In this document: piece after piece, positions 14,688 through 46,981 of the stretch
Layout: each line of letters starts with the position of its first letter
How positions within the stretch are numbered: the stretch's first letter is position 1
Source of the DNA: Macrostomum hystrix
Lineage: Eukaryota > Animalia > Platyhelminthes
DNA length: 64,000 bases
Assembly (NCBI GenBank): GCA_950097015.1
Contig: CATNEN010000001.1
Coordinates: forward strand, 27,094,001 to 27,158,000
Direction: 5' to 3'
Made by a program: the position numbers and the translations under genes
The notes under the pieces: model-generated
What the model saw: only the letters and a program-made list of their open reading frames with translations
Database searches by the model: none
Told to the model about the DNA's origin: nothing

Positions 14688-14741
14688 AATGCACTCCTAT
14701 CATGGTGCCCGTGGGGTCTTTCAGCAGGTCTATTTCCTTTA

Positions 14742-17700: not shown

Positions 17701-17780
17701 AGTCTACCGCATAATAAGGTTTGTTGAACAGTGCGGTTTTTTAACATGTTATAAACAGTGCGGTAAAATGTCGCTAACGT
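14742..17780 (+). mobile_element. DNA transposon with ~100-bp TIRs and 8-bp TSD, carrying a Ulp1+PHD gene; no transposase seen
   Basis: TIR ACGTTAGCGACATTTTACCGCACTG... is mirrored at the right end; TSD TTCCTTTA on both sides; ~61-bp subterminal tandem repeats at 17460-17710. Confidence 0.85.
16158..17046 (+). CDS. Spliced Ulp1/SENP-like (C48) cysteine protease fused to a PHD finger (exons 16158-16309, 16455-16761, 16922-17046; upstream exons degraded)
   Basis: GT-AG joins keep frame. NHFILVWI...ILDP...QQDCNSCGIF gives the His/Asp/Gln/Cys set; CFLC...WIFCDSC..WCHTVC...WRCDFC is a C4HC3 PHD. Confidence 0.75.
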
Positions 17781-19315
17781 TTCCTTTAGGTGGTAAAAAT
17801 AAATGTTTGGTTGATGTATGGCAGCATACTTTATATCAACCTCCTTCTTGTTGCGACTATGTATGATTTATCAGTGGCTGAGATTTATTGTTGCTGTACG
17901 AAAATTGACTCAAATGCTTTGACGCTTGTCAGTTTATCAGCGAGTATTATTAAGCGAGTATCTTTTTTATTAGAAATTTATGTGGAAAGAGGAAAAGAAA
18001 AACAAAAGCGTATACGTTCGGAAGTGAAAAAGTATTGTATTTTTACAAAATCTAAATTAAAAAGCATACGAACGAGCGACAGCATATAAAAGGCGGACTC
18101 TGGGTAAAAGGTAAATCTCTAGTCTATGGCCAAGGGTGCGAGTACTATGTCTCATTTGACATAGTTATATTAAGACTGAGGCTATGTCAAAATTGTATAT
18201 AACTTTTAATCTAGAATTTTACTAATACTAGCTTTAATACAATATTGTCTAGATTTTTTTACTTTAGTTCTTCTTAGAGCCAAACGGTGATAAACTTCTA
18301 TTCTAAGTATAGCAAGCGTTATGTTAAAAGGGAAAGGACTTTTTTGAACATCCCTCATTGTATATCTTATTGTTATGTTAGGTCATTACTCCCCGGTGGG
18401 ACACCCGCGCCCAACCCGCGCCTTCCCACCAGTGGCCCCGCTGTACGCCCCACTATACGCCCACCCACCGGTGAGCGGCGGGAAGGCGCATAGTGGGGCG
18501 TACAGCGGGGCCACTGGTGGCCACCAGTGGGGGGCGCGGGTTGGGGTGGGGGGTAAATAAAATTCGGGGCATATCCTCAAAGTCTACTGTTAGTAGAAAT
18601 GTTAGTTTGAAATCATGAAGCCAACTCAGTCGTGTAGGAAATTATTTCTAGATTGATTTTCAATTGAATCCGACTCGATAAACTGTGCTCAAATCTATTG
18701 GGACACCGACGACAGCCATATAGTGTACTGACATAGTCAGAGTTAAGATAAAATTTTCTAGGTGACTTTCCAGGTTAATAAGTTCGAGTGGAAATCATTT
18801 GAAATCATGAAACCAACTCAGTCGTGTAGGAAATCATTTCTGTGGGGGAGATCAGTAGGGTGAAAGGGAGATCAGTAGGGTGAGAGGAAGTGTGGTAGTG
18901 AGATGCAGTAGGGTGAGAGGAAGTGTGGTAGTGAGATGCAGCAGAGTGAGAGGAAGTGTGGTAGTGAGATGCAGTATATTTCGCAGGTATCCGAGTTGCA
19001 TTGTATTTACGATTCTCATCCTGGATTCTCATTTTATATTCTCATCCTAGATTCTCATCCTAGTTTTCATCATAGATTCTCATCATAAAATCTCCAGGAA
19101 GAGAAAGCAGCAGCTCCACGACACCAAGCACGTCAAGAAAGACCAACCGGAAGGCCGTAAAAGTGCAGCGTCTACAGGTCTAAACACAATTATGAGCATA
19201 CGAGCACACATATATTTATGAGCACATGAGCACTGAGCACAACTGAATAACGAAAAATAACGAAACAAGTTCACTAAGTTGACTTGTAATGCCGCATGCT
19301 GTTGCCAGGGGCCGG

Positions 19316-19731
19316 TTACCAAGGACGCCACAAAGGCTGGGCTTTATCCTGATGCTGATGATGCTGCTGCTGCTGCTGATGCTGGTCCATCGACTGGCTT
19401 GATTCTTCGTCAGTAGACAAAGCCGACACCGTTGATGAGGCCGAAGACTTGCAGCAGAAGCTTATGGCCGCAGATTGAGTCTTGGCTGAGCCATTCAGCA
19501 GCAGCTCGACAGTCAGCTCCAGGATTTCGGCCTTCTTAGACGCTGAAGCCGGTACGGTTTTATCACTTTGTTGGCCTTCAGCAGCTGTATGAGTTTTTCG
19601 AAGCTGGCATTAATTCTGGCTCTGCGCTGCCGCTCCATCACCTGCTTGCTGATTCTCCGATGCTCCATCAACTCTTCTGGGCGTGTGGTTCGTCTGTTTT
19701 TTTTTTAATTCGGAGCTCGAAATTTTGCCAT
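19316..19731 (-). pseudogene. hes: Second HES copy, frameshifted
   Basis: Paralogue of 2186-2554 ending QHQQQQQHHQHQDKAQPLWRPW*. 1-bp deletion at ~19537 (CCTTCT-TAG vs CCTTCTCTAG) and an altered 5' end. Could be an assembly error. Confidence 0.8.
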
Positions 19732-20507
19732 CGACCGGCCGCCGCCCGAGTTTATAAGTACACCCCCACCGCCAACCCCCGGCTTCCTGTTTCCTCTATC
19801 CCCGCTTCGCTCGTGAAATGAAGTTTTAGCTGTCATGTTCCGCCTAGATTCTCCCAAATGTGCCTTATCTCTAAAAACAAACCTCATAAGTAAACAAGAA
19901 ATATCACCAATTCTTTGAGGACCTCTCAACAATTAGAGTTCACAAAAAGGCTCGTTTCAGCAAGCGTGTGAATTAAAAATGACTGTCAACACAGGTGGAA
20001 AGGCGGCTTTATTCTGAAGTTCTGACGGGCTTAAAGTTCTCTGAGACGTTGTTCCCTTTGAGATTGCGATTGAGAATGTGACAATTAACTGTAATTGCAG
20101 CAGCATTACATAGTTGTAGTTAGAACTTTCACAGTGTACAGCGCTAATTTCCTACGGCATTGTCAGTCTTGACGCCACTTTGGCTTAACAACAGCCAGTC
20201 AAAAAGTATTTTTGCCCTTCAAAAAGCCAGTCACACAGCAATAGTTAGAAAATCAGAAACATATTTCAGACATAGAATTTGAGAATTACGTTTATTTTGG
20301 CTCGAGCAAATAACCTTTTAAGCTGCAATGCACTGCAAACCTTCGTTTTCACTTTCACTTTCACTTCTCCGTTAAACTGATAGGTAATGCACGTGTGAAT
20401 TTCAAACCGATCAACATATTTTCCTCGCTCGCACTCACTCTCTCTATTGAAATTGCAATAGCGGCAATTCAGCCCGGCTGTGTAGTCTATGGTTTTTTAT
20501 ATAGCGA

Positions 20508-20850
20508 TTCTTATGCAGCAAAAGAGCCCGGCCGAGTCCCCTATGCTTTCTTATGCAGCAAAAGAGCCCGACTCAACCCTTAATGCTTTCTTATGCAGCA
20601 AAAGAGCCCGACTCAACCCTTAATGCTTTCTTATGCAGCAAAAGAGCCCGACTCAATCCTTAATGCTTTCTTATGCAGCAAAAGAGCCCGACTCAATCCT
20701 TAATGCTTTCTTATGCAGCAAAAGAGCCCGACTCAATCCTTAATGCTTTCTTATGCAGCAAAAGAGCCCGACTCAATCCTTAATGCTTTCTTATGCAGCA
20801 AAAGAGCCCGACTCAATCCTTAATGCTTTCTTATGCAGCAAAAGAGCCCG
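20508..20850. repeat. Tandem array of a 40-bp unit (TAATGCTTTCTTATGCAGCAAAAGAGCCCGACTCAATCCT), 9 core copies
   Basis: Core TTATGCAGCAAAAGAGCCCG recurs every 40 bp from 20511 to 20831. Confidence 0.95.
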
Positions 20851-21226
20851 CGACCCGCTTTGCTATAATTCTAAATTGATGACTACTGATAGCAGTTGTT
20901 GCAGTGTTAGGTGCGAGATCGGTTGGCTGATTGAATACATATACCAGTCATGATAATTTTGTTTCAAATGGCGCAGTTGTGACAGCAGCGGAATGCAGTT
21001 CGAACATTCTATGAAATGAGTTTCATGCAGGGTATTATCTTACGTTACATGATGACTGCAGCCCCATGCCACTGCCCGCACCTGAGTTAGGGACCCATTT
21101 CGCACTGTGATGATCGATCGAAATTTTTCCAATATACTGTGGGATATATAGTGACTATAGCGGTATTAGCTAGTGTTAGACGCGTTGCTGCTGCACTCAC
21201 GACATTGTTGGGTGCGTAGAACCACG

Positions 21227-21646
21227 ATGAATGCTCATCCTGTGGCGCTGTTCGGCTCGCCGGCCATCGTGGCACTCCTGGCCAGATGCGACATCGCCTG
21301 CCTGGCCCCGTTCCTGGCGCACCGAGGACGACTGGAGCAGCTGACCTGCCTGCAGCGCCACTGCCCGAATGCTGAGCTGAATGCCACCCAGCTACACACC
21401 TTGCTGAAGAGCCTCCTGGACTGGCTGCTACAACACCAGACAGCTGCGGGCTACGAGACTATCCTGGAGGTGACCTGCCTAACAGAGAACGAGGCTTTCG
21501 ACTTGGCCGAGCTGCTAGGCCTGCTGGAGGACACCTGTTCGGAGCTGCAGCACATTCTACACGGGCTGGACTACCGGCGCGGCGTGCAGCAAAGGGCAAG
21601 ACTGCGAGAGTTGTTCCGGAGTCGCGAATATCGAATGGAGCAGTAG
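21227..21646 (+). CDS. Small all-helical protein (139 aa), possibly CARD/death-fold-like
   Basis: GC-rich ORF in AT-rich context, followed by AATAAA at 21723. Leucine pattern LAPFL..RGRL...LLKSLLDWL...GYETILEV...DLAELL. Confidence 0.5.
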   Translation: MNAHPVALFGSPAIVALLARCDIACLAPFLAHRGRLEQLTCLQRHCPNAELNATQLHTLLKSLLDWLLQHQTAAGYETILEVTCLTENEAFDLAELLGLLEDTCSELQHILHGLDYRRGVQQRARLRELFRSREYRMEQ

Positions 21647-21733
21647 CAGCAGCAAAAAGACTTAGCTACTAGACAGTTAAAATAACTTATCCCTGTTTGT
21701 GAACCCAAACCAAGTCTGCACCAATAAAAGAAC

Positions 21734-23759
21734 CAAGGACCACTGTAGTATAACAGGACGGGAAACTCAAAGATCGTGTAAATTTTTAGAAGGCCGATTT
21801 CCTGGAAAAAATACACTGCGGAGATAGGAAAAAGTCATTTTTTCAGCACATAATCAATTATTGCTTTTGATCTGGAGCAAGTTCAAATCCGTTCATCTTA
21901 GTACAGCATGCCCAACATTAAGCTCCGTTGTTTTTATATAGCTTCGTTTATAAAAGTCTTATTTTCACATATATATATTATATAATAGTGTCTTGAATCT
22001 ATATAGACTATAGACTAGCACATTTAATGGCTCAAAATATGATAGCTAAATATTCTTAATTTGGCCTAAATTGTTTGAATTAACAAATTAGCTAAATAGT
22101 TTGGCAAAACTAACAGCCAAAAAAGTTAACTAATATAACAGTAACTATATAGCTATAAAGGTACAACAAATTTCAAAGTGATTTTAATGCAACTGTAGTG
22201 TCGGCATGTTTTATAATGCGTATATTTCTACTTGTAGTAACTTATTCGCGCACGTCAATATTATGAATTATTTTAATGTATCTTATAGGTTAGTTGTTTG
22301 TACATGCGCACCCCAGCCAGGCCTAACACGCGACCGGCCGGTCACCCCTGCTCTACAGCCAAGGCATCAGACTAGCCCTGGTCTGGTGGGCCCAACCAAT
22401 GGGAGGACGGCTAGCCGATTGAAGTGAACCGACTTAAGTGCGACACCCCGAGCCGGGCCAATCAGCAGCCGGTTCGTTAACCGGCAGGGTCGACCTGGCA
22501 GAAGAACAAGCGGCGCGGCCGGCACCCAGGCTTTGATGAGGGCTGGGGCGGGCGCTTGACTATAAAACTGACTATTGCGCTGAAATATTGTTCTCATGTG
22601 ATTCTGGTCTCGCGTTCGACCTTGCTCTTGCTCTTGATCTTGATATTGTTCTCATTCGTGTTACGCATCCTAGTAAATAGATACCGGGACAGGTAAACCG
22701 GTCCAACTAGTTAGTCAAAGAAAACCCCCACACTCAACCCCACGTCAGTAAGTAGCTTGCGCTGAGCTCGGTACGTCTGGCCAACTGCTGACGGAGTGTT
22801 AGATAGGGATTGGCAAGCACGGAAGCACTCTCCATATCGCCGACAATCATCGGTGGGACGCCGTCGAACAGACATTAGGTGTGGCACGATAGAACTATCG
22901 TTGTGCCATAGTGCAGAAGTGCTTGCTGGTCGCCTCGGTTTTATGTTAGGGATTTTGGTTAGGTTTCGCGTTATTTGTCTTGTTTGTTATAGGGACTATC
23001 TGTTTGTCTAGGATTTATTTGTGTTATTTATCGTGTCGTATTATCGAGTAGAGTTCGTGTTTTGTGTTGCGGTTATCGAGATTTTGTTAGTGCGAATTGT
23101 GAATTGGATTGAATTAAGTACAGTACCTGGCAGGGGACGAAAAGAGCGCTGCCAGGGGAATTGATCAGTGATCATAGCTTTCTCTTATTTACTGATTAAC
23201 ACTTAAATATCAGCTGTTTAGCTTGGGATTTGAATCGTCTTGTCTTCGTTATTTTCGAGTTGCGAAAAGGGAATCTCTCACAAAGAGTAGGACACCCGAC
23301 CTCATTTAGGAATCTCAACGTAAAGAGAGACCTAAGTCAAAATATCACACAACCAAGTAAGTTAATTAATTTTTGGCTGTTAGTTTTGCCAAACTATTTA
23401 GCTAATTTGTTAATTCAAACAATTTAGGCCAAATTAAGAATATTTAGCTATCATATTTTGAGCCATTAAATGTGCTAGTCTATAGTCTATATAGATTCAA
23501 GACACTATTATATAGTATATATATGTGAAAATAAGACTTTTATAAACGAAGCTATATAAAAACAACGGAGCTTAATGTTGGGCATGCTGTACTAAGATGA
23601 ACGGATTTGAACTTGCTCCAGATCAAAAGCAATAATTGATTATGTGCTGAAAAAATGACTTTTTCCTATCTCCGCAGTGTATTTTTTCCAGGAAATCGGC
23701 CTTCTAAAAATTTACACGATCTTTGAGTTTCCCGTCCTGTTATACTACAGTGGTCCTTG
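21734..23759. mobile_element. P-element-like foldback MITE (~400-bp inverted arms)
   Basis: Starts CAAGGACCACTG, ends CAGTGGTCCTTG; 8-bp TSD AAAAGAAC; arms 21734-22130 and 23360-23759 are near-perfect reverse complements. Confidence 0.85.
22194..23349 (+). mobile_element. Solo LTR
   Basis: TGTAGTG...TATCACA with 4-bp TSD CAAC; internal TATAAAA at 22561; related to the LTR at 645-1804. Confidence 0.85.
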
Positions 23760-23834
23760 AAAAGAACTAAGGTGGCAGATCCAACTCGATACCGGGAAGT
23801 TTATTTTGGATAACCTAAAAATAGACCGTATAAG

Positions 23835-23967
23835 AGTACAGTTCGTGGTGCGCGCACAATCCCTAAGAAATATATACATAAGACGATGCGAGGTGCTTAT
23901 CTACCTAAAAATAGCAGGCAAGTCCTTATATATTTTTAAGTAATGTGCGCGCACTATGAACTGTACT
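23835..23967. repeat. ~120-130-bp inverted-repeat module (GTACAGT..GTGCGCGCAC...GTGCGCGCACTATGAACTGTAC); other copies at 28616-28732 and, degenerate, 32152-32253
   Basis: Terminal inverted repeats with TA at the borders (MITE-like); in this window seen only inside the YR-Rep element. Confidence 0.7.
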
Positions 23968-24064
23968 TCTCGCTAAAAGTACACACTATCAACTTAACCG
24001 GGATCCGAATTAACCTAATTAAGCACCTATTAATAGAATCTGAGTCGATCAGTTTAAAACTATA

Positions 24065-24102
24065 AGATCAATATGCGCGCACATGTGCGCGCATATTGAT
24101 CT
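24065..24102. other. Perfect 38-bp palindrome
   Basis: AGATCAATATGCGCGCACA|TGTGCGCGCATATTGATCT. Confidence 0.95.
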
Positions 24103-24323
24103 ACTAGAAGTAGTATAGTAACACTGGTACTATCTGCTGCTCATCCTAAATAGCCTGCTCCTCCTCCTTGGGACGTACTTGGGACTCTATTATTAATAGC
24201 GAATCCCACCCTGTTGCACCCAGTTGAAGTTGAGTACCTGGGACTGCGTTGGCTTTCTGCAGCCTGCTCATTTTCATACATCCAAATTTGAACGCGCCTA
24301 TAATTAACCTGCGGAAGCACAGA

Positions 24324-27124
24324 ATGTCGTTCAACTTTTCAACCGGCTGCGACAGCGACGATGAGCGAATTGCGGCCGCGCTGGACGAGTTTGAGAGAGT
24401 TGCCCAAGATAGTAACTCCGCCGGGCCGGTAGCGTCATCAACTCGCCAGCCACCATCACAGCGAAAAAGAAAGAGCGCTCCCTCTCAACGTCGGATTGTC
24501 AATGCAGCAGCCGCAGAATCTACGCCAGGCCCAAAGCGTATATATACTTTCACCCCAGTGCAGACAGCAGCGGTGGCTAACATCAGCAGCGACGCCGACG
24601 ACTTCAGCCTGCTGCCATTGAGCGGTGTCATGCGCCTAAACACTGGAGAGCAGCAGCCTGCCAGTGACCAGATGTCCACAGGCAATCAGCAGCCACCGCC
24701 TGCCAGTATATCGGCCGTCTACGCGCCCATCTCCCACGCGATGGCAGCCTCAGCCTCGACTGCGCCAAAAGGGAGCATGCTGGCTTGGCTCGGAGATCAG
24801 CACCGGAGTGCCAAGAAGGCCACCAGCAGATGGTCATCGCCGGCAGCGATCAGGCACGTCAGGCGACATGCTCCTGCCAACTGCGGCGATGGCGACGGGG
24901 CGGCGTCTGATGCGCCCGACATGTCCACGGCAGCCCTACAGCCTCGCAGCCCCGTCGTCATCGAGATTGAGGACGTCGACGACGAGCGCGCCGATAACGG
25001 CAGGCCGACAGCGGCAACTCGCACAAAGGCGGAGCCATCGGAGCCTAACGAGCAGGAGGCGGCGATGGATAGCGACGACCGCGATGCTCTGCAGGCACTG
25101 CTGGACTACGAGGCGTCCACCGTTGCGCTGTCAGTCGCTGCAGATCCCCCACCGTCGGGCGCTGATGCGGAAATGGAGGAGGCCGCCAGCACGGTGCCGA
25201 AACCGCCTCAAGTCGCGGCCGACCAACAACAGCAGCCAGGGAGGCGGAGATTCCGTTTCCAGCGGCTCGAAACGACTGCTCCCGCTGTTGCTGCTGCTGC
25301 CGACTGCTCCATTGTGGGCGCCATGGTGCCAGACTCGCAGCCCGATGGCCGACGATTAGCAGTCGCCAAGACCACACCGTCTCAGCGTCCGGAAGATGAG
25401 ACGACGGCCTACGTGGTGTCGCCTGGCACAGCGGCATTCGCAGCAGCCGTGGTGGCCGCTATGAATGAGGCCAGCCAGTCCGTCCCTGTCGGCGAGGAGT
25501 GGTGGCGCATATTAACACCACAGCCGCTGCAGCAACAAGAGCAGGTGCAGCTCGAGCGTCCTCCCTCGCTGGTGCCCTTCAGCTACAGTCCGCCGGCGTC
25601 TGCGGCACAGCTTATTCACTTCCTCCAGCAACAGCAGGGGGACAGCGAGGCGAGCGGGAGCGGGGTCGGCGGCGCCAGAGGACAACGAGGCGGCCGAGGG
25701 GTGCGACGGCTGGGCCAAAATCCGCTGCTTAATGCGGCAGCAGCACAGCAGCAGTTCACTGTGACGCGCTCAGTCAGCCGGCCGCTCGCAATGACCGGTG
25801 CTGCTCCTGCGGAGCGACTGCCCGAGGACAGCGGCATTCTGACCGGGCGCCGCTATTTGCACGTCTTCCACATCGACAAGGTGCGCTTCGTCGGTGAGTC
25901 ACTTGCTTTGTTCATAAGCTCTGAATCATATAACCAGCTGCTGGCATCCACTGTTTCCATGCTGCCTACATAAACAGGTCGTGCCAAAGTATATCTGGGC
26001 GAGGCTCTGGAGGCACACTGTGTCGAGCTCGTCCTGGCGTCCAGCCCGGGCCTCTGCGTCGGCATGGATGAGTTCTGCGACCGGCGGCTAGTCGCTGACC
26101 CGCTCTCCGTCGACGAGATGGAGCAACAGCAGCAGCAGCAGCAGCAGCACAGCGAGTATCGGCCACACCGCACTCTGTCCGGCTTCGTGCGCCTGGAGAC
26201 CAACGCGGCCGGCTGGCATTTGTACGAGCTGCTGTTCAGCCTGCTGCCTAGCCGAGACGAGGGACGCTGCTTTGTGGTGCCCGACCGGACCACCCTGACG
26301 CTGTGCGGCGTCCGCTCGCCAGACAGTGTGCTGCGGAGCCTGACGCAGCACGACGGCTACCCGCTGCTGATCGGGATCGGCGCCACGCAGTGCAGCATGC
26401 TGGTGCAAGCGACTCGGTGGGCGCTGTCCTACCCGCTGACTGCCAACCTGCCAGACCAGACTGACGGCTTCTTGTTGGCCCACCAGCAGATGCGCGCCAC
26501 GTTGCTGGGGGTCTTTAGAGACGTGCAGCGCCAGCGCCGGATTCGCAGGGAGCAGCTCGCCGGCTGTTCCGCATGTTCCACCGAGGCTGCCGACATTAGG
26601 AACCTGTGCCCGCTCCGAGAGGCCGTCTGCACAGCCCTTCGCCACCAGTCGGGCGTTGTGTACCTTTACGGGCCGTCGGGAGTCGGCAAGACCACCGCCG
26701 TCGAGCGCCACCTGGGCCAGGAGCGCGTCTTCTGTCCGGTCATCAAGCGCTTCGGTGGCAATGACTTCATGTTCGACGGCCTGGACACCGCGCGCCACTC
26801 CGTCATCTTTCTGGACGAGGTGCGGCCGCACATGTTCGAGGGCGGCGACCTGGAGACCACGCTGTTGCGCCTGCTGAACGGCAACAGCTTCCTGGTCAAT
26901 GCGAAGCACCAGGCGCACGTCTACCTGGACTGGGGCCAACGGCTGGTGATCGCGGCGATGGCGGCCACGCCTCACCTGACGACTACCCGGCTGACGTGCA
27001 GCGGCGCCTGCGCAACGAGGGCAACACGTGCGTCGAGGTCGACCACGACATCGAGGCCTGCCAGGGGGGGTGCCGCCAGCAGCCAATGTTCGGAGCCGCC
27101 GCCGCCAACGCCCAGGTTGAATGA
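24324..27124 (+). CDS. Rep-like protein: long disordered N-terminus, degenerate HUH domain and SF3 helicase (exons 24324-25893 and 25978-27124; 1-bp frameshift at ~26958)
   Basis: Intron GTGAGT...AAACAG joins the two track ORFs in frame. Walker A YLYGPSGVGKTT, Walker B VIFLDE, B' LLRLLNG...VNAKH. Restoring one A gives motif C LVIAAN and arginine finger VQRRL. Confidence 0.8.
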
Positions 27125-28939
27125 GGCCGCCTTTATATGTCTGTCTGTCTGTCTGTCTATTGCTAAATTATTTCATCCCTGCGCCCGTATTTTGTCTCCA
27201 CCACCATCTTAAAGCGGGTTAGCAGATGTGGGCAGGCAGAAATAGCTAGACGGCCAAAATATTACATAACAAAATATTAGTCCTTATTGGGCTAAATAAG
27301 GAATGGCTTTTGGGTTCGGCTGTTTAACAGCACCATATATTATAATCTATACCTGGCACGCAGTTGCAGAAAACGGGGTAGCAGAAATGTGCGCGGACTA
27401 TAGCAATTTATAAAGCATTAGATGGGATTAGTTTAATTGAATTAAATAGCGCGCAGTGTTTTCCTAGTGTTTTTGTTGCTCGTCAGTCTAGATGTGCTAA
27501 GAGATGGAGATGGCATTTATTACTTGTTCTCAGGATCGCTTCTCGCTCTTATCTGATTGCTTTTATTTTGAGTTCTATTATTTCAGAGTCAATATTTTCA
27601 TTTAGCATATGTCGCAGGCTGTCGAAAATTTCAATTGTCCCCATTTTATTGCCGTTCTACTTTTTCTGTACCGGCTCCATTAAACTTTTTAATCCCTCAC
27701 CGCCAACAAATAGTTGTTGTTGTTGTTGCTGTTGCTGCTCTCCAACAAGTTAGATAGATGGGCAGCTAGAATAATTAACAATGATTGCCTACCTTGTGGA
27801 GCGCAGATAAAAATCACTTTAAACGCAGTCGTCGTCGCTGGGGTCGCAGCTGGAGCGGAGCAATCGGAACAGTGTAGGGGGCAGTCGAAACGAAATAGTA
27901 GATCACGAAGGAGCTGATTTGGTTGATTAATAGAGTTGGTATTGAAAATCAAAGTGTAGCTTGGGAACGATCGAGTCTGTCTTAATCGATTGGCATAGAG
28001 AAATCAATCAGTGCGCGAGCTAGCTCTCTTTGACTTGTGTGCTCAAGATGAGCAATACAGTCCTTCCTGATAAAATTTAGTTTCTATGTGCCTAAGCTTT
28101 GTCTATGTCTTGAGTTTATCGCATTCCTTTATTAATAGTAGTCTAAATATAATTTTACACACACGCAGTTGTTATGTGCTTATTTGGGCGCTATTTGTGT
28201 TATTATAATTTATAATAATTGAGCTATAATAATTTGAGTAAGTATACTAGTATATGGTATGAAAAGCTGACTGCATGCATTAATATGTGAATAAAGGACA
28301 TAAATCAAGAAAAAGCATTCAATCAAGAACTACATGTAGTAGACGGTACGTATGCATATGAAAAATCGGCAATTAACTAATTTAAGATGAAAATCAACAA
28401 GCGGCATCTGCAATAACAAGCAATTAAAATACATGTAGTAATGATGTGTGCATTAAAATACAATTTGGATGGACGCAAAAAGCTATACATATAATATAGT
28501 AGTACGATTTAATAACGGCAATTAACAGCTGCATATAGTGCTACTCAGTTATTTATAGATTTTATATAAGAAACTAAAATTTCAAATTCGCGCTAAATTC
28601 TACGAAATTCAATGTGTACAGTCTGTAGTGCGCGCACATTCCCTAAAAAATATATAAGGCATGTCAGCTCTAATTTTAGAACGACGATCCTTATATATTT
28701 TTTAAGTATTGTGCGCGCACTATGAACTGTACCTAAATCTAAAATTAAATTGCTTACTTGACTACTATAAGTAGAGCAGTTAGCAGCATTTGTTTAGTAA
28801 TTGTCAGATAAATCTATGGCTAATTAAATAATTCTATCAACAAAAACAATAAAGTATAATATTATCAACGGGAGTAATCAGTCAATCAATACAATCAATA
28901 TTCTTAACTATAGCATATAATATCAATTATAATAACATT

Positions 28940-28977
28940 AGCGTATAAAGCGCGCACATGTGCGCGCTTTATACGCT
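28940..28977. other. Perfect 38-bp palindrome with the same 18-bp core
   Basis: AGCGTATAAAGCGCGCACA|TGTGCGCGCTTTATACGCT. Confidence 0.95.
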
Positions 28978-29207
28978 GCAGTAACATGCAGTCAAACGAA
29001 TTCAATTATCCCTCCCTCGAAGGCCTGTGCATGTTTTCTCTGCGTGTTTTCTCTCTGTCCCGGCCCCCTTTATCTGCCCCACGGTGTTTTTCACTCACTA
29101 TTTAAATATTTAATAATATTTTATATTATTAATATAATATAAATTAAATATTTTATATAAAATCTTAAATAAAGCAGGCAGACAGACAGGCGGGCAGGCA
29201 GGGCGAA

Positions 29208-32068: not shown

Positions 32069-33198
32069 AGCTATTGTTATTACAAATTGATGCAGTGCCA
32101 TATAGGTGTATGAACTGAATTCAGTATACATGCTCAATCAACACATGCTATGTACAGTCCGTTGTGCGTGCATCTAAATAAATATATATATGCCCCTATA
32201 TCCCATTATGGAATACACTATTTTAAGTGTTGTGCGCGCACATTGTCCCGTACTGTTGTCATCGCTGCTGCATTTATATTCGATTGAGTGCTGCGTTGAG
32301 CACATAAATCACTTATTTTTATGTTGTACCTAACAACAACAACAACAACAACAACATCCTGGCTGTAAAAATTATAAGCCTCTGAATCATTTATAAATTT
32401 TAAAAACATAATTTTTCATTTGCAATGTAGTACAATCAGCTCAGACATTCGATTTTCCAGTGAACAGCACACCCACCCCCTCCAACTCGATCTTCCTCCC
32501 TCAAAAGCAGTGCCGAGCCAGCCAGACAGACCTGCAGATGGAAAGAGAGACGACTTCGATCGTCTTCAGTCTATGGCCACAGGGGTGACATTATCGATTG
32601 GTTAAAGCAGACACACTGCTTCTCTTTTTCAAGGCAGAGCAGTGGCCTTCCACACCCTTTTACCATAGACTATGAATTTAGAGACAGGGCCGCCCCCTTT
32701 CGCTTTCGAAGGTTTAAAGAAAGGGTGGCAAGCAAAGTAGCAGTCTTTTAGTTTTAGCCCGGCCCAACTGCTCGATCGAACTGCAGCTTACAGTCAAATA
32801 TAATTCAGAGATTCATCCACAATTCGAATCAACAGTCTGCCTTCTATTTGCTTGGACTATATTAAAACAGGCTACAGATATAATATCGACAGAGAGCCAC
32901 AGGATCTATTATTATGTCAACAGCAAGCATTAGGATCTAATATATTTCTAGGCAGCTCAGAACTGCATAACACTTACAGAGATTACTAATATATTATAAT
33001 TATAGAGAACTGCATGCGCTATTATCTATTAGATTAACAGACCGATTGTTATATGTATACAAGTACTAATTGAAGGGCCTATTATATATACAAAGACTAA
33101 TCTGAGGGCCTATTATATTAACACAGCTTGTAATGCATATTTATGAACAGATACTTATATGGCCTATTTAAAATACACAGCCTTTTTCTTATTTGCAG

Positions 33199-33810
33199 CG
33201 CAACAGACAGCATCAGCAGAAGCATCAGCAGAAGCAACCGACAGCATCAGCAGAAGCATCAGCAGTAGCAGCAGTAGCAGCTCAGTAGCAGCTCAACAGC
33301 TCTAGCAGCATCAGTACCAGCAGCCAGCCCCATCTGCCCGTGCCCACTTCGAGGTGCAGCAGAAGCAGCAGTACCAGCAGCCAACCCCGTCCGCCTGTGC
33401 CCACTTCGAGGTGAGATAAAAATTAAATTGTACAGCTGGATAGCATTAGTTAGCCTCAGCAACTATATTCGAGTAGACTTTAGCGTCGAAATTATATTCT
33501 AATTGCTTTTTTCCATGCTCATCCTCAGCTCAGTGCAGCTAAACCGGCCGGCACCAGCCAGCAGCATCAGTAGCCGAAGCCAGCCCCGTCCGCCTGTGCC
33601 CATTTGCCAAGCAGCAGCAGTAGCAGCAATAGCAGCACAAGCAGCAGAAGCAGCAGAAGCAGCAGAAGCAGCAGTACCAGCAGCCAGCCCCCGTCCGCCT
33701 GTGCCCACTTCGAGGTGAGATAAATATTCAATTGTACAGCTGGATAGCATTAGTTAGCCTCTGCGAAATATAATCGAGTAGACTTTAGCATAGAAATTAT
33801 ATTCTAATTG
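33199..33810 (+). pseudogene. Degenerate, internally duplicated Gln-rich exons (QYQQPxPSAxAHFE|GT)
   Basis: Acceptor TTTGCAG; donors GAG|GTGAGA repeated at ~33411 and ~33715; CAG>TAG stops. Confidence 0.35.
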
Positions 33811-36390
33811 CCTTTCCGTGTTTTTTGCTTGTCGTCGCTGCCGCCGCCAGTCAAAGTTAAATCAAATTATTGAATGTCATAAGACATAGAGTCTGTGTCA
33901 ATCAGTGTCAATCAGTCAGTCAATCGATCTCGAACGAAACAATACATTCAGTATACTGTACACTGCTGCTGCTCTAATGCAATATCAATAACGAGAGAAA
34001 ATGAGTGCTTGCGAGCAAAGCCATAGAGGAAGCGTGGTCTTCCCAGTTCTAAAAATAGCTGCAGAGCTAGCGCGTGAATTTAAATACACTGTTTACGTTG
34101 TTATAAACGAGAGAAGATGAAAGTGATTTTAGGAAGGCCTTTATGTTCATTTTTTGTCTTAATCTGACTTCCGAATAAATAAATCTAAATAGTAAGCTAA
34201 ATGGAGCAGAACTGAACTGCTGCGCACTGAAATATAAGCGCTATACGAAACTTGCTATGTTTGCGTTTCAATGAGGCCCAAATGGCTCTCCGAAAAGACC
34301 GAATAATGAGTCGAAAAAAGCTGGGCAAAAATCTGAAAATTAGGAAAGTATATTGACAAACTTGACACTGAAATTAATTAAACAAGACGAAATAAATACA
34401 AAGACTCATGAGATTTTTTCCTGCCATTTCTTCACGAAACATAGGAAAAGTTATTTTGCAAAGTTAATTATTGTTTCAAGCATTTATAATTGCTAGGAAT
34501 TTCAGCCATCTCATAATTATTTGAGTTGGCATTTGTATTTAGAGTATATGTTATATGAATATAGCAGCAAAGTGTGTTCTTATGAAGTTTGTGTGTTTTT
34601 AATTATTTATGCACTGTAGCTACAGTTTTTACAGAAGGCACATTTTTTACTATTTTACCTTTAAGTCTCTTATAGCAGCTCAAGTTCTGTGTTTGTCTAA
34701 ATTGGCAAAAATTGAAATGTCAGCTAGGGATAAAAAGAGGGCCTCAGTTTAATCAATATTCATAAAGGCATTCAGAACAAAATTAGCTTATTCACAGTTA
34801 GTCAATCATATCTTTTTGGTTGGCACTCAGCAGGCTGTTGTTGATTGTTGGCCATTCAGCTTCAACACCAGACTCAGATTCTTGGGACTCCTTGTCCTGT
34901 TATATAGGCTCTCCTTGTCCTGTTAGGTGTGAGAGGTAAGACAGTTAGTTTGCTGTTTGTATTTAGATCTATAGCTAGGCAAGAAGGGGCAGAATGCTGA
35001 TAAGAGATGATAGAGGAATGTTGCTCATAGGTTAAATAGGACCACAATTGAGGGAATTACACAGGGCTGGTATTAACTATGTACGGGGCTTGAGCATAAA
35101 TGTATAGTGTCGGGCTAACAATAAAAATGATTATGTACTCAAGCACTTACCATAGCCTTTAATCATTTGTGATTAGTTCTCATATGCACTTAGCTATGCC
35201 ATGAGAGTGAAGACAACCAGATGCCACAATTCCAGCTAGTGAGCCAGTGTGATAAAGACCTGGTAAAATAAAGTTGATAAATAAATAGAGGAAATTTCAT
35301 AGCAAAACTGTACCAGACCAAATAACTCTAGTGTACACTAGGATCACTTATATTGCTTGAAGAAACAAGAAGAGAAGAGGAGAAAAAAGGACAGGAGAGA
35401 AGAGGAGAGGAAAGAAAAGCAGAGGAAAGGAGGGGAGAGGGGGAGAGGAGGGGGGAGAGGAGAGGAGAAGAGGAGGGGAGAGAATTTCATAAACAGCAGT
35501 TTCAAGGCAAACTACTGCTCATGCAGTATCCAAACCAATAGCTCAAGGCAAACTACTGTGCATGCATTATCAAAACTAAGAGCTCAAGCAACCAGCAATT
35601 GTGTGTTAGGTATCTTGGGCTGGGTTGGGCTAACACTAAAAATGATTATGTACTCAAGCACTTACCATAGCCTTTAATCATGTGATTAGTTCTCATATGC
35701 CCTTAGCTATGCCATGAGAGTGAAGACAACCAGATGCCACAATTCCAGCTAGTGGGCCAGTATGATAAAAACCTGGTAAAATAAAGTTGATAAATAAATA
35801 GTCATTATAAAGAAATTTCATAGCAAAGTTATATAACTGTACCAGACCAAATAACTCTAGTGTACACTGGGATCAATTGTTATTGCTTTGCAGGAGCTAA
35901 CCAACAATTTTTGGTTGGGTATCTAGCAAACACTTTACAACAAATGATTAGCCAAGCCTTACCAGTTCTCAGATGCCAGCCTGAAGATAGCAAGCAAAGC
36001 CATCATTCCAGCTTGTGTGATAAGGACCAGTTAAGATGTACTAAGCCTCACTGCAGTTTGCTAAGTTTTTACCATCCTTTTAACTGCTTTCACTTTCTTA
36101 AATCCTTAATTCCTTTCAGGCTCTTTAATTATTTGTAGCCACATTTCACTTTTCTTTCAAGCTTTCAGCTGAATTGCCTCTGACATCATCCATGAGCAAT
36201 GAGCTGCAGCTCAGGAGCATTGAGCTAAAAGCTAGGCTTCTCTAGCTAGTGAAACCAAGCTATACACTTTTACCATCCTTTAACTACCTTAAATCCATTT
36301 GAACATTTTAAACACCCTTTGATACACTTAATTTACTCTTATTCACTTCTACTTTTGCTTTAACTTTACTTATTTACTTTTCAATTTCCA

Positions 36391-36960
36391 GAGAATTATA
36401 TTTAAATATTGCTGAATGGATCACATTCAGCAGCAGCAGCAGCAGCAGCAGCAGCATGTAGGTGGAGTGAGGGCTGGAGTGAAGGTGGAACAGCTGCAGC
36501 AACAGCAGCAGCAACAGCAGCAGCACCCGTCGGGCTTTACGCTCGGCCCACGGCTTTGCAGTGGCTCCTATCCGGCACCGCGTCTTCGTCGCGGAGGGGA
36601 GGCAACGCCCGGCTCCCACCGGGCGGCTAAGAGTGCCGGGACTCGGTCACCGCTCCTCTCCAGGGGGCGGTGGTTGGGGCTCCACCTGGCGGCGGCCTCG
36701 TGGGTCCTTCTTCCTCTGGGAGGCTGGGCCTCGCGGGGTGGCTGCTGGGTTTGGAGCCTAGTCCGTACACAACAACAACAGCAGCAGCAACAGCTGCAGC
36801 AACAGCAGCAGCAACAGCCCAGCAGCCCCTGGGCGCTGCAGCCCACGACGGTCGACAACCAAAAGATCCAGTGGTGGAAGGTGAAGGGAGGGGCCGGGGC
36901 GGCCACCAACTTTACACCGCCAAGGCCCGGTGCCCTCCCCCACCGGCTAAGAAATAAAAA
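36391..36960 (+). other. Paralogue of the polyQ exon at 5747-6102 with a different central segment
   Basis: Same flanks and C-terminal peptide; unrelated GC-rich insert between the polyQ tracts. Confidence 0.35.
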
Positions 36961-39564
36961 GGTTTGTCTAAGCTACCTATTTGTGATACCTTTATTCCTG
37001 AATTCTTAATCCTTAATCGTTAATTCTTTAAATAAGCGCTAGTAGTAAAATTATACCCGTTTGCAGGTGTAAGTTTTCATTGAGTCTGGTAAAACAATAT
37101 TTACCTTTAGCCATTATAGCACCATTTATTAAAATGCGATTGTCACACTACAATGCTAATGCAATATTACAACGTAGCAAAATGTACTCACATTCAATAT
37201 GATTGTAGCCATAATGTCATATGTCGTGTCTTGCCGTGTTCGTGTTTAACCAGAAAATTGCATGAGCCATCCTCCAAGCTTTATAGCAAGTTTATCTGCA
37301 AATTTAAAGAAGCAGATAGCAACTGCGTACGAAGACAAACCCCTCACTCCACATTCATGCTGTCCAATAACAAGCTGCTAACACACCTCGAAACCTCCCA
37401 CTTCGTCATTTCAGATCGCGCATTTGATTTTGTTGCTTCGAATTTGAATTTGAAGATTTTGGAATACATCTTTGCTTGTTGTCTTCCTTTATTTCACTCA
37501 TATTTATTTATTAGCTTGATGCACAGCCTAAATGTTTAGCTTCTTAGCTTTAGCTTAGCATGATTACCAACATATTTATCGAGCACTCCTTGCTTCGTGT
37601 TCCTGAACTTGCTTTGCTTGCCTGCTTTGCTACAATTCGTAGCAAAAGTACATTTTTTCATTTCTACTAACATTTGTACTAAGCTGCTACTAACATTTAC
37701 ACTCCGACCCTTAAGCTGGCTAACACTTAAAAGATTCGCATGCTTACCATCTGACCTCTGTGTCCCTGTAGCTAAGAGTTTGCTACAATTCGTAGCAAAA
37801 GTTCATTTTTTCATTTCAACTAACATTTATACTAAGCTGCTACTAACATTTACACTCCGACTCTTAAGCTAGCTCACTTAAAAGATTCGCATGCTTCCCA
37901 TCTGATTACAGACAATCGTTATAGACAAAGATAAATATGTAAATTGGTTTTGAAACATTCCATATTTTTTCCAGACGTTCTCCATGAACACCTGACGCCT
38001 GGTACACGGTCAGGCGTGTCAAGAAACGGAAGCTGCGGATGACATTGATATTAGTGTCTATTCTAATTCAATCAGCTACTCAGCGTCGAGTAGCAGTTGG
38101 CCCAGCATCCCGGCGAGCTGTATCTGGCCGAGTTTAGCAGGTTAGATAACGATCAGCGACCTTCACGGACTCATGTCATGTCATTGGAGTTCCACGGCTG
38201 CGCTCGCAACAAGGTTGAATAATCTTTTTGTTTTGTTTGTTGTAGTTTATGAAATAATGTGCAGCAACAATTAGTTTATTTATAGTATTTATAAGTAGCA
38301 TTTATATAGCATTTATAAGTACTTGTAGTTATCTCATACTTTTATAGGAAACAGTCTGTTTTAATTACATGTCTTCAAAATCAAGGTTTAATTACAGATG
38401 ATAAGTCATGCATGGGGAATATGAGAAAACACGAGAAAACAGAACAAAACATATCCGTAAGAAAAAATAGTTTTCGTGAGTGAAGTAACGCAACTGAGAA
38501 TCGGACAATCCGTACTTTAATTCTGAGTCATTGTCTGGATCATGTGATTTCTAGGGTATTGTTGGGTAATGTGCATCCCCGCTTCACTCGTGAAATGAAT
38601 TCTGTTCTAGAATTCCTATCTGTGGTTTTAGATGTCATGTTCAGCCTAGATTCCCCCAAATGTGCCTTATCTAAAAACAAACCTCATAAGCAAACAAGGT
38701 AGATTATTTTCTTCGAGGACCTCTCAACAATTAGCTAGTTCTCAAAAAAAACTCCTCGCAACGAGCGTGTGAATTAAAAAATGACTGCCAACACAGGTGT
38801 ATTTATTCTAGCACAGGTAGTGTTACACTTAAAATAAAAAAGCAAGAAAAACAAAACCCAATTCATATTTAATACTGCAGTACACTGCTAGCTGGACATT
38901 TCAGATCTCATACTTGTTTACATGAGTGAAGTAGCGCAACTGACAATCAGACAATCCGTGATGTAATTCTGAGTCATCGTCTATTTGTCTGGATCATGTG
39001 ATTTCTAGGGCAACGTAGGGATTTCTGAGGTATTAATTAAATTATGGGATTTCTGATGACGAATAGAAAATTTACATGAGCATGTTCAATTTTATTTATT
39101 TAAAGTGATTGCCGCTTTATATATACGGCGTGCATACAACAAAATAAAACATACGTATGAAAAGTACATGGTTGTCGTCGGTGTCCCAATAGATTTGAGC
39201 ACAGTTTATCGGGTCGGATTCAATTGAAAATCAATCTAGAAATGATTTCCTGCACGACTGAGTTGGCTTCATGATTTCAAATGATTTCCACTCGAACTTA
39301 TTAACCTGGAAAGTCACCTAGAAAATTTTATCTTGACTCTGACTATGTCTTGTACTATATGGCTGTCGTCGGTGTCCCAATTGATTTGAGCACAGTTTAT
39401 CGGGTCGGATTCAATTGAAAATCAATCTAGAAATGATTTGCTACACGACTGAGTTGGCTTCATGATTTCAAATGATTTCCACTCGAACTTATTAACCTGG
39501 AAAGTCACCTAGAAAATTTTATCTTAACTCTGACTATGTCAGTACTATATGTCTATAAATATAT

Positions 39565-40550
39565 GCTCACCCTACTGCTCTCCCTCTCACCCTACTGCTC
39601 TCCCTCACACCCTACTGCTCTCCCTCTCACCCTACTGCTCTCCCTCTCACCCTACTGCTCTCCCTCTCACTCTACTGCTCTCCCTCTCACCCTACTGCTC
39701 TCCCTCTCACTCTACTGCTCTGCCTCTCACCCTACTGCTCTCCCTCTGACCCTACTGATCTCCCTCTCACCCTACTAATCTCCCTCTCAACCTACTGCTC
39801 TCCCTCTCACCCTACTGCTCTCCCTCTCACCCTACTGCTCTCCCTCTCACCCTACTGCTCTCCCTCTCACCCTACTGCCTTCCCTCTCACCCTACTGCTC
39901 TCCCTCTCACCCTTCTGCTCTCCCTCTCACCCTACTGATCTCCCTCTCACCCTACTGCTCTCCCTCTCACCCTACTGCTCTCCCTCTCACCCTACTGCTC
40001 TCCCTCTCACCCTACTGATCTCCCTCTCACCCTATTTTTAATTCTTGTCCAGTAAATGCTTTTTAGCAGCTGTATAATTTTCAGCTTTTTTACAGCTACA
40101 AAGATCCCCAGTTGACAATGATCTCTCAGTTGACAATGATCCCCCAGTTGACAATGACACCCCAGTTGACAATCATCCCCCAGTTGACAATCATTCCCCA
40201 GTTGACAATGATCCCCCAGTTGACCATGATCCCTCAGTTGACAATCATCCCCCAGTTGACAATCATTCCCCAGTTGACAATTATCCCCCAGTTGACCATG
40301 ATCCCTCAGTTGACAATCATCCCCCCAGTTGACAATCATCCCCCAGTTGACAATTATCCTCCAGTTGAACATGATCCCCCAGTTGACCAGGATCCTCCAT
40401 TGGATGATGACTACCCATATCGATGATGATCCCCAGTTGACAATGATCCCCTATTCGATGATGATCCCCCAGTTGATGATGATCCCCCAGTTGACAATGA
40501 TCCCCCAGTTGACAATGATCCCCCAGTTGACAATTATCCCCCAGTTGAAA
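39565..40550. repeat. Expanded 20-bp and 18-bp subterminal minisatellites
   Basis: Same units as 9195-9720 at higher copy number. Confidence 0.95.
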
Positions 40551-43500
40551 ATGGTCGATTAATTACTGCGCTCAAAAAATACAACAGAGCCTACTAACAG
40601 TAGATTTTGAGGATATGCCCCGAATTTTATTTACCCCCCACCCCAACCCGCGCCTTTCCACCAGTGGCCCCACTGTACGCCCCACTATACGCCCACCCAC
40701 GTATAGTGGGGAGCGTATGATGAGCGGCGGGAAGGCGCACAGTGGGGCGTACAGAGGGGCGTATAGTAAATGTCCCACCGGGTCATGTCAAAGTCATTCA
40801 AGTCATAGCTTTTTCTGTATAACGAAAAGCCTTTAAAATAGTATAAAACAAGCAGAAGTATTTTTTCATATCGAATACCCCAAAATAGTAATAAACAAGC
40901 ACAAGTTTTTTAACATTTATCTTTCTATGCTTTGCCATACTCATGTTACATTTAATTTGTCTATTTACTATTTATTTACTCGTATTCTATTTATTTATTT
41001 GTTAGTTTTATATTGTATACATTGTACAATGCATTAAATTAATGAAAAAATAATAGTCCTACTATTTTAAGTCTATAGCATATTTAAGGCTTTTAGGTCC
41101 TAGTTAGTTTGATATGAAATATTTGTTTTTGTTTTTTTCTAAAGTTCTATAGAATAATAAATTAAGTATTTTGAATTTAAATTTAATATATATAGCAAAT
41201 ATGTTATGGCAATTAATTAGCTAGCTATAGCAAATATATTATAATAACCTTAAACTTTTTATAATGCAACAACTTAAAAGCTATATTTATGATTTTTCAG
41301 TTCCTACTACTATTACTATCAGATAAAACCGTAAAAGTGCTCTGAAGAAAAATGATGTTCTTTAGTTTGACCATCTACTTGCCTGGTTTCCAAAAAGTGA
41401 ATCCCATAGTGGAACTCTATATATCAATTCTAGCCATCTCAGCCACTTACAAGAATCGGACAAAATTAACTTCAAACCTGGACAACATATCACACTTCGT
41501 GATGCTAATGGTCTTCATGGTGCAATTATTCTAAAACTTGGCACAAATGCATCTGTTCGTATTGCAGAAAGCCAAGTTGAGGATTTGATTGATTCAGGTT
41601 ATAATACTGAAGGAATCTTAAAAGAACTTCAAAAAGATGCAAATGTTGACATTGATGATGCTGACAATGAAAAAGCAGATGAAAATTATTTGCCAAATGA
41701 AGATGAACTGCTTCATCTATCAAAGTCTTCTAGCCTCAACAGGGTTGCTAAACCATCCCAAGAATCAGCTGTATTTTCAAAGGAAAATAAAAAAGAGCAG
41801 CAGCTACAATCATCATATCTGGCAACTCATGAATTTGCTGCAAAGGCAAAGTTGACATTAGCTGCTACTAGCAATAGTCCAAATGTGTTCCAATCTCACA
41901 GTAGTGTGAGTGTAACTCCTAAGTCTCGAGTTTTAGCACCAGGATCTAGAACACCTTTCCAAAAGACTATCACTGTAGCAAATCCAAATGTTTCACCTGC
42001 ATTGCTAGGCTTTCATTCAGCTGCAGCTTCAAGTACACAGGAAGTAGGTTTGTGTAACTCAAGCACTGGTGGTTCTCAACAGACTCAGCAGCGTCACGCA
42101 ACTTTTAAATCTGCTGAGCCAGTTTCTACAACCCAGCTACTCTTAGAAGAAACTCGATTGCAAAATGGCCTAATCAAGAAGATGCTGCAACTTTAAGAAG
42201 AAAACAATAGTCTTCTTAAGCAAGCCTTTCTACCAAATGAAGAAACTAGGAATCGTGAGGACAAGACTGTTATTGCACATGATGGCAGTTCATTTCAGTT
42301 TTCCAAAGTGCCCCAAAGCTTGACCTCATTTGCTAGGGAGTTTGTTCATCGGCGTTTTGGAGAAGAATTTTGCAAATATGTTATAGTTGAGCCAAATGGC
42401 AAGACATTTTACCCTATAGTTAAATTCCTGAATCCATCTATAGAAATAAGTGCTCTTTGGGTGTTCCGGGTTCGGGTTTCGGGTCGCGTTTTAACTCTGG
42501 GTTCGGGGTAAGGTGTTCCGGTCGGGTTAGGGTGTTCAGGACGCATCCCTAATTATACCTTGTATTCAATTGCTACCTTCTGACTACTTTTAATTTAATT
42601 AATAACTAAATATTTCAGGAATTTTCAGCTCATAAACTTCAATGGACAATACTGGACTAGAGTTCCAAGAAGCGATCTCGTCCATGTGTCTGCACGACGA
42701 CCTGGAACTGGAATCCGAGGAAGCCTGACAGTATTACTCACGAACGTGATACTTCTGCATTTGGAGTCACCGATAGCAATATCCCTGACGCGCCTGATCC
42801 CTTCGAAACTTTTTTTGACGAACTGAATGCCGATGAGCTAGATGAGAAAGAAATCCACCCTGTTTCGACTACCAGCTGCGTTGATGATCTGAAAGATTTA
42901 GCTCGAAAAGAGTTTATTGCTGTAGTTGTTGTTTTTCTAATAGTAAACAAAGGCATCCCTGCTGCTACAATGGACGTCATTTTAAAGTCCTTTTTTGCTG
43001 TTAATTTACTTACCGTTTCGCTTTCTATGAAAGTAGTCAAGCGCCTAATGTTTAAGTTGGTAAAAGCGTGTAATTTTTTTCGATTTTCTCATCCTGCTCC
43101 AATTCGGAGTGCCAGCGATCTATATCGGACCACACAAATATTGAAATGTGTTGTGGCTTGCCCGTAACACGATTTGCATACCTAGACGTACATTTCCAAA
43201 TTTCTCTTCTTCTGGCATCCTACTTTCAGGACATGGTAGCCTATAGTTCTAGTACTGCAATGAAATCTGACGTTTTAAGAAGTGTGCCTTTAGATTATGC
43301 TTCTTCGTCACTAATTACTCTCTACTTACACCTATTAACTGATGGTTGTAGTATATTTTCAAATAATCCTAGCTCTTTGTGGCTTGTTCAAGCTCAGGTA
43401 TTAAATTTACCCCCTCAGTTAGGGTTTCAACCAGAGAATATGCTTATGCCCACTGGTAAAGCCGCTAGTGGGCCACTAGAGGTCCGTTAGCGGGATGGCG

Positions 43501-46407: not shown

Positions 46408-46981
46408 TGTTGTGTTTTGCATCAGAAGCCTTGTGACAAACAATTTTCTTACACTGTTTGTTATGCATGAACTGTTGGATTAATTATTTATATTGTTCCG
46501 TTTTTTGTTGAAAAATGTAAGAACTGTCATTGAAACTAAATAGGTGTAATACTTATATTTATCATTTAAGTATACCTACAACTAATATATTTATTGTAAA
46601 AGTTATTTTGCTGTTGTGTTGTGAACAACTTTATGTTCAGCATTGTTGCAACTATGCATTATATAAATGCAATTTATATAAAATCAATTCAATGCTCTGT
46701 TATGACGAATTGCTTGTCTTTTCTTTTCTTTTCTTCTTTGTAATAATGATTTGTGTTTAACTAAATAATTGCGTGTGTCTATTTTCATCGTTAAACTAGT
46801 AGTGCAGTTTGCGTACTTCTTTTAGCAGTTTGCAGTTCTGAAGTAAAGACAGAAAATAGTTCTTTTTATTTGAATTGGTGCATTCCGTTACTTACATGTC
46901 ATTGGTCTTGTCCTTTTAAGTATCAGAAACAGTCACAATTGCAGGTGTGCTTTAATCCACTAATTCCAGACAACGAGCCAA

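Follow-up and report, generated by a model that had tools for sequence, protein, structure and literature searches.

We asked whether a regulatory gene of an animal has been captured and multiplied by a DNA transposon. The locus in question is a stretch of 64,000 nucleotides from the flatworm Macrostomum hystrix (GCA_950097015.1, contig CATNEN010000001.1, positions 27,094,001 to 27,158,000; hereafter the window), which holds two copies of an intronless HES-like gene on its minus strand, copy 1 at 2186–2554 and copy 2 at 19316–19668. An earlier note on this DNA had proposed that the gene was amplified as cargo of a Pack-CACTA-like transposon. The explanation we favor, at a probability of about two in three, is that a non-autonomous EnSpm-like element captured a host HES-like gene together with its upstream DNA and spread copies, the cargo probably being a passenger.

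The unit around copy 2 has well-defined ends. The 12-mer CCCGGTGGGACA occurs at three sites in the window, 18392 (+), 40782 (−), and 9949 (−), where 0.11 are expected, and three or more sites were reached in none of 100 shuffles. The first two sites are the tips of a terminal inverted repeat (TIR) at 18392–18596 (plus strand) and 40591–40782 (minus strand), perfect over 12 bp and continuing imperfectly for ∼205 bp (158 of 172 aligned positions match); the left repeat is GC-rich and contains an internal palindrome (hairpin z −13.15, 0 of 200 shuffles). The dinucleotide TC is read directly outside both ends, at 18390–18391 and 40783–40784, and the span between is 22,391 bp. The TIRs and TC duplication that the earlier note had placed around copy 2 and its upstream region were thus recovered, with a longer repeat. 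A left subterminal zone (18606–19012, plus strand) holds inverted copies of a 191-bp unit, of 20-bp repeats, and of 33 bp from the right end, while the right subterminal repeats (39168–40553, plus strand) comprise the 191-bp unit twice, the 20-bp repeat 23.5 times, and an 18-bp repeat 25.3 times. The 191-bp unit and the 20-bp repeats are therefore present at both ends, inverted, whereas the 18-bp repeats are confined to the right end. EnSpm/CACTA elements typically bear subterminal repeats on either side. In having a host-derived gene between its TIRs, the copy 2 element resembles a Pack-TIR (Tan et al. 2021), and we consider it a putative Pack-TIR of an animal, unusual in that its cargo is a whole gene and multicopy.

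Joining the two flanks of copy 2 gives five TCAT per 80 bp, a density of at least five that is found in eight of 6392 intervals of this length. The earlier description of the joined flanks as continuous TCAT-repetitive DNA stands to that extent, but the site was chosen by eye, and no empty site was found, as neither flank matched other sequence within the window. The earlier note had also allowed that the ends might belong to separate small elements with partners of their own; in the window we found only the three 12-mer matches and no inner partner for either terminus.

This last result bears on a simple alternative, in which the host HES locus was multiplied by ordinary segmental duplication or polyploidy and small inverted-repeat elements lie beside copy 2 by chance. 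HES genes often duplicate within single lineages, with up to 22 in zebrafish (PMC8429573), and Macrostomum can be polyploid (PMC10733133). The lack of an inner partner for either terminus in the window speaks against this alternative, as does the manner in which the two copies diverge at their right ends. Homology between them ceases exactly where the right TIR ends (9762–9949 in copy 1, minus strand). Beyond it, copy 1 is followed by GT and the 3′ portion of a long terminal repeat (LTR; 9950–10309), whereas TC and then AT-rich DNA follow copy 2. The claim that copy 1 stops at the same right TIR against other DNA is thereby borne out. This flank corresponds to the middle of an LTR, with 349 of 355 aligned positions matching 1097–1454, and since cacactGTgagaagc stands at the site matching the junction in the LTR that is not interrupted, a GT duplication is predicted for copy 1.

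Elsewhere the two copies are similar. Positions 2106–3378 and 19239–20418, which include the gene, share 92.0% identity over 1079 aligned bases, and 3378–9949 and 34359–40782 share 95.4% over 5393 aligned bases, in blocks of 83%–100% that suggest possible gene conversion between copies. The rest of copy 1 (2555–9761) comprises the HES upstream region, the internal region, and the right subterminal repeats; the internal region common to both (34359–39160 in copy 2) has no EnSpm transposase remnant. In all, 13,940 of the 22,391 bp of copy 2 are absent from copy 1, and the element minus these is 8451 bp long. At the left, homology extends only to ∼80 bp beyond the HES stop codon. The place of the left subterminal zone of copy 2 is occupied in copy 1 by 25-bp repeats (1799–2097, plus strand), and directly left of these, after a purine tract, stands a whole LTR (646–1790) of the same family as that on the right flank, so the left end of copy 1, if any, lies beyond the window. 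This LTR has a 47-bp tandem duplication (1040–1095) at the site where the right end of copy 1 joins the LTR's other copy (9950), possibly a repair footprint or a hotspot. Part of the HES upstream region is duplicated near the right end of each element (7758–7885 and 38575–38799; 84%–90% identical), and 509 bp at 8131–8639 are found in copy 1 only and are matchless elsewhere in the window.

The left side of copy 1 lends some weight to one-ended or tandem amplification, in which HES would be linked to a single right end, most copies would be head-to-tail or locally rearranged, and the two-ended form would be a minor long type only, perhaps a hybrid of neighboring insertions. The 25-bp repeats of the common type look by eye like the right-end 18-mers in the same orientation (with no blastn match), copy 1 has the same LTR family at both sides, and Pack-CACTA hybrids from neighboring insertions are documented (PMC6379663). 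A public run, X5 (kind unrecorded; 15 of 30 bins covered), adds a third 3′ neighbor of HES, which resembles element-internal DNA at 6396/37268. The window copies, although in the same orientation, do not form a head-to-tail array, being separated by 8.4 kb of unrelated elements, and their right flanks differ. The depth of the inverted repeat, given below with its caveats, also corresponds to about two ends per gene copy. We consider one-ended or tandem amplification possible but unlikely. The earlier preference for transposition over tandem duplication is partly upheld by the exact stop at the right end and the two different flanks.

Contigs of four of the 10 listed public runs, none of which was listed as RNA, were compared with 18200–20480. 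In the DNA run X2, a contig covering the flank and left junction of copy 2 matched 222 bp without differences at a depth of 60.9 and ends 30 letters inside the inverted repeat, as expected at a repeat's start. HES contigs from the same run had depths of 1384.6 in mid-gene and of 950.9 and 268 over the region encoding the basic helix–loop–helix (bHLH). Relative to the unique flank, the gene is 16–26 times and the inverted repeat 34–45 times deeper, the latter corresponding roughly to a pair of ends for each copy of the gene. The contig at 950.9 carries the copy 1 base at 11 of 11 listed sites, and the contig at 268 carries the copy 2 base at 10 of 11. On the 3′ side of HES, a depth of 1094.8 continues like copy 1 and 402.6 like copy 2; the 402.6-depth contig leads from the 3′ end of HES up to position 19034, which is 22 bp away from the zone mirroring the right end, and thus points to ∼6 copies with the left arrangement of copy 2. 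Just within the left edge of the stretch found only in copy 2, the depth is 542.7, which suggests that at least the start of these 14 kb is present in several copies. As a rough measure, we read these depths as about twenty copies of the HES-like gene, some three-quarters of them of the copy 1 type, in line with the claim that the gene is amplified. The difference in depth between flank and gene also argues against segmental duplication of the host locus, which we regard as very unlikely.

Run X1 yielded copy 1-type pieces at depth 17 and no flank piece, and run X6, labeled as another organism, yielded part of the right end in diverged form, with 10 of 59 letters differing, together with a piece of the HES upstream region at depth 6.5. 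A further X2 contig (683 bp, depth 70.3, as for a single locus), matched to 19640–19780, contains the 5′ end of HES preceded upstream by 545 letters of dissimilar sequence, and is a candidate for the parent gene or a rearranged copy.

The X2 contigs also inform on the assembly itself. Mis-joined repeats could in principle have produced the two copies or the long span: the region is highly repetitive, some inter-copy blocks are 99%–100% identical, and the reading frame of copy 2 is broken in this assembly by a 1-bp deletion at 19536 that is absent from the X2 contigs listed. Since the missing base is present in both the 950.9 and the 268 contig, either this locus alone is frameshifted or the assembly is wrong at this point (contigs lose rare variants). 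The copies are nevertheless 8% apart at the gene, the two types form separate X2 contigs, and the left junction of copy 2 was matched without differences; an artefact of this kind is hardly credible.

We turned to the cargo, which the earlier note had called a HES gene. Copy 1 is an open frame of 122 amino acids, of which 106, counted from an ATG common to copy 2 and Macrostomum lignano, encode a bHLH (PF00010, E = 9.6 × 10−11) and a WRPW motif; it retains the sequence LEKADILE. Copy 2 likewise encodes bHLH and WRPW, keeps the WRPW codons behind its frameshift, and has a 33-bp in-frame Gln/His insertion. TATA-, N-box-, and CSL-like motifs are retained upstream in both copies; in copy 2 (upstream region 19669–20418, minus strand), they lie at 19751, 19810, and 19965 and are motif matches only, which do not amount to a Notch-responsive or developmental function. 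Among the matches listed (120 of 506), the named relatives were HES, hairy, and E(spl) proteins and the rest were unnamed; the nearest relatives among all 506 were Mlig018776g1 and Mlig018776g2 of M. lignano (PAA71211.1, PAA47787.1). In a tree of 62 rows and 56 columns, from which 60 of the 120 listed matches were left out and whose bootstrap had not settled, the two window copies and the two M. lignano proteins formed one clade (100/100) on a long branch.

HES proteins are distinguished by a proline in the basic region and by an Orange domain (PMC8429573). At the proline position, both copies and the M. lignano proteins have Gln, against Pro in all 118 other matches among those listed, and Orange (PF07527) had no match in copy 1 or in P0001 at E 0.05. 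We accordingly file the gene as HES-like: the HES-type bHLH and WRPW of the earlier claim hold, but the basic proline and the Orange domain are absent and copy 2 is frameshifted. To judge by these features, the cargo is an atypical HES. Several residues of the copies occur in none of the 118 other listed matches, namely, L23F, K27I, and D48E in copy 2 and R13Q and K42 in copy 1. The M. lignano proteins share with the window gene a short bHLH–WRPW design, Gln at the HES proline, and no Orange domain (bHLH 42 of 56 identical to copy 1), but they have a longer, unrelated tail and two annotated copies. M. lignano has three subgenomes (PMC10733133), which could explain its two copies.

Between copies 1 and 2, the ratio of nonsynonymous to synonymous divergence was 0.86 over 105 codons (seven synonymous and 20 nonsynonymous changes; Fisher P = 0.81), and nine of 10 bHLH changes that tell the types apart were nonsynonymous (P = 0.47 vs. 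neutral). Neither purifying nor positive selection was detected by these two comparisons, which have low power, and divergence between the copies looks close to the neutral rate.

The identity of the carrier was examined with the help of a neighbor. A separate element of EnSpm type occupies 43449–49587 (plus strand); its ends read CCCACTGG, it has a TG duplication, and its transposase frame of 640 amino acids (46982–48904) is open. The frame itself has no Pfam match but shows the motifs DGLP, CDAPA, CGYC, DEQH, and FPFE, and its relatives carry Transposase_21 (PF02992) and DUF4218 (PF13960). The ends of this element are CCC...GGG with a 2-bp duplication, of the same kind as those of the HES element; CCC ends with 2-bp duplications thus accompany an EnSpm transposase in this genome, and the neighbor can serve as a model for the class. 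CCC ends occur in animal EnSpm families. For CMCT elements, termini of the form CA..TG are described "in most cases," with duplications of 2–5 bp (PMC12730594). On account of its CCC ends, we file the carrier as EnSpm-like rather than strict CACTA; going by ends and repeats, it would be a non-autonomous EnSpm/CACTA-like element. The inverted ends, the subterminal repeats, and the host gene inside agree with the Pack-CACTA-like carrier of the earlier note, but the termini are CCC instead of CAC.

Neither copy contains a transposase remnant, the profile matching three of 1507 frames, all outside them; the shared core gave no known domain or transposase in the six frames scanned and short tblastx matches only. 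The autonomous partner that the earlier note had suggested looking for was sought in the window. The neighboring EnSpm element was rejected as partner, since its termini match those of the HES element at nine of 12 bases; it belongs to a different family. It has a second frame of 471 amino acids and is nested in a decayed EnSpm-like element (profile matches at 50390–50680 and 52245–52535). In metagenome contigs, a 29-base end motif had no matches, and the M. lignano HES protein had 593 pattern matches, none confirmed.

Several points weigh against capture and spread by an EnSpm-like element. The complete arrangement of both ends and a duplication is a single case, copy 2, and the 2-bp duplication is, as the earlier note had cautioned, weak on its own: the chance of such a match here is P ∼ 0.09, and a third inverted 11-mer pair in the window, probably fortuitous, also has one. 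That LTRs of one family flank copy 1 left and right could also result from local rearrangement, and the 25-bp repeats of copy 1, which matched nothing else in the window, stand in place of copy 2's left zone in the commoner type (depth 1094.8), whose left end is beyond view. Contig depth is not copy number; summed depth over repeats is inflated by overlapping contigs, and a polyploid genome would lower the ratio. The X2 figures come from 27 of 287 pieces, X2 may be the assembly's own sample, and the 30 letters of its junction contig on the repeat side are one below the bridging criterion. Finally, the ends are CCC...GGG and not CAC, no partner was found in the window, and the parent locus of the HES-like gene is not among the sequences identified.

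Under the account we favor, the host orthologue of Mlig018776 would have been captured after the split of the two Macrostomum species, and the whole unit would then have transposed by cut-and-paste, with a transposase supplied from elsewhere in the genome, to reach some twenty copies. These would later have split into two types, the long one with the 14 kb of helicase and recombinase genes and the short one more common, with gene conversion among copies. The cargo most likely behaves as a passenger under weak selection, and any intact, transcribed copy would raise the dose of a WRPW (Groucho-recruiting) repressor.

The stretch that distinguishes the long type (20419–34358) contains a 40-bp tandem repeat, an open frame of 139 amino acids, a nested element, helicase-like and tyrosine-recombinase-like genes, and Gln/Ala-rich repeats. 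No clean repeat was found at its junctions; it may have been inserted into copy 2 or lost from copy 1. Three related palindromes (23836–23966, 28616–28732, and 32152–32254) surround two convergent genes, each apparently split by one intron: the gene on the plus strand is helicase-like, and that on the minus strand combines a zinc finger with a tyrosine-recombinase-like part. The former ends in an ATPase nearest RNA_helicase (SF3-type) clusters. The terminal frame of the latter is nearest phage-integrase clusters (score 0.96), with one row for a telomere resolvase cluster (0.93), and seven relatives retain an Arg pair and a Tyr at the positions expected of a tyrosine recombinase, of which this is the motif. 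Both of its frames match one M. lignano protein of 1084 amino acids in a six-member cluster (E = 1 × 10−25 and 1 × 10−4), and relatives of the palindrome-bracketed genes are multicopy in that species. The recombinase-like frame had no Pfam, PHROG, or PDB match and no longer relative by word search, and its single-sequence structure model was uninformative (predicted local distance difference test [pLDDT] 31). The gene pair looks like a second, nested mobile element, and 23836–32254 is possibly an undescribed recombinase-based element.

In another interpretation, the HES-like repressor serves the element as a functional accessory gene. Some twenty recently spread copies, most of them open and equipped with a promoter, would raise or alter Notch/Groucho repression in the worm or silence host defenses in cells in which the element is mobile; the long type would be a 22-kb composite also ferrying the helicase and tyrosine-recombinase module. 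We find this interpretation distinctly unlikely.

Capture by an EnSpm-like element has several partial precedents. In a survey of 100 animal genomes, multicopy cases numbered four (1.4%) among reference-genome Pack-TIRs, and 87% of Pack-TIRs belonged to hAT and TcMariner (PMC8277862); the words Macrostomum and Schmidtea were absent from the 12 supplementary files of this paper by word search. Ssk-FB4 of Drosophila melanogaster resembles the HES element in being a non-autonomous TIR element with a host gene and 5′ upstream DNA, multiplied by transposition; it is MULE-like and carries a nearly whole junction-protein gene in four copies, whereas the HES element is EnSpm-like and carries a whole transcription-repressor gene in ∼20 copies, as depth suggests. 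Arabidopsis Pack-CACTA elements are likewise non-autonomous and CACTA-related, with closely spaced insertions in direct orientation and loss of one end (PMC6379663), a behavior that the direct-orientation copies 8.4 kb apart would fit; unlike the HES element of an animal, with its 2-bp duplication, CCC ends, and whole gene, they have 3-bp duplications and carry gene fragments. Fragments of MKK3 are found in a barley Pack-CACTA (bioRxiv 10.64898/2026.03.23.713676), and enlarged En/Spm elements are described from a red alga (PMC6431247). The animal EnSpm/CMC elements ENS1_Cis and CMC-NA share 2-bp duplications, inverted ends, and non-autonomous derivatives (PMC6004678; PMC12730594), but end in CAC...GTG, in contrast to the CCC...GGG of the HES element and its EnSpm neighbor. 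The GsdfY supergene of Takifugu is likewise an animal case in which the movement of whole developmental genes is associated with CACTA elements (PMC9191631); there, ∼100 kb lie between two same-direction CACTA copies with no terminal inverted repeats, the authors prefer recombination, and the supergene is at one locus per genome, not amplified. No earlier report of this element appeared in the literature searched, which left out most subscription papers and Repbase and covered supplements of PMC8277862 only.

A whole regulatory gene as passenger of an animal transposon is rarely reported, and known captures by animal TIR transposons are mostly single-copy fragments (PMC8277862). If correct, our explanation would make this locus a direct and recent example of HES family expansion in a single lineage, by way of a dosage-sensitive type of repressor. 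As the genus is one of laboratory flatworms, it could also be tested there whether extra copies are expressed, tolerated, silenced, or changed. Were the copies silent passengers, they would still clearly be a Pack-CACTA-like family from an animal, though one that would appeal chiefly to specialists on transposons.

Several smaller features of the window deserve mention. The 139-amino-acid frame at 21227–21646 has no Pfam match and a weak PHROG match (E = 0.003). The nested element at 21734–23759, which we take to be hAT- or P-like, contains an LTR-like insert, is flanked by an 8-bp duplication (AAAAGAAC), and has inverted repeats of 390 bp whose complementarity is 100%. On the plus strand, at 33196–33715, 36416–37009, and 5766–6110, lie pieces rich in Gln and Ala that resemble exons and have splice-like edges; Pfam gave no match in the three frames scanned, and they are perhaps a second captured or decayed gene. 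The window as a whole is a nest of transposons. Fragments of Pif1-type helicases occur at 12721–13269 and 62121–63531, and LTR-retroelement integrase fragments at 10257–11600, 54265–54798, and 61227–61985. An element at 14741–17781 has 103-bp inverted ends and 61-bp repeats, and its short frames resemble, by eye, what we presume to be a Ulp1 protease and a PHD finger.

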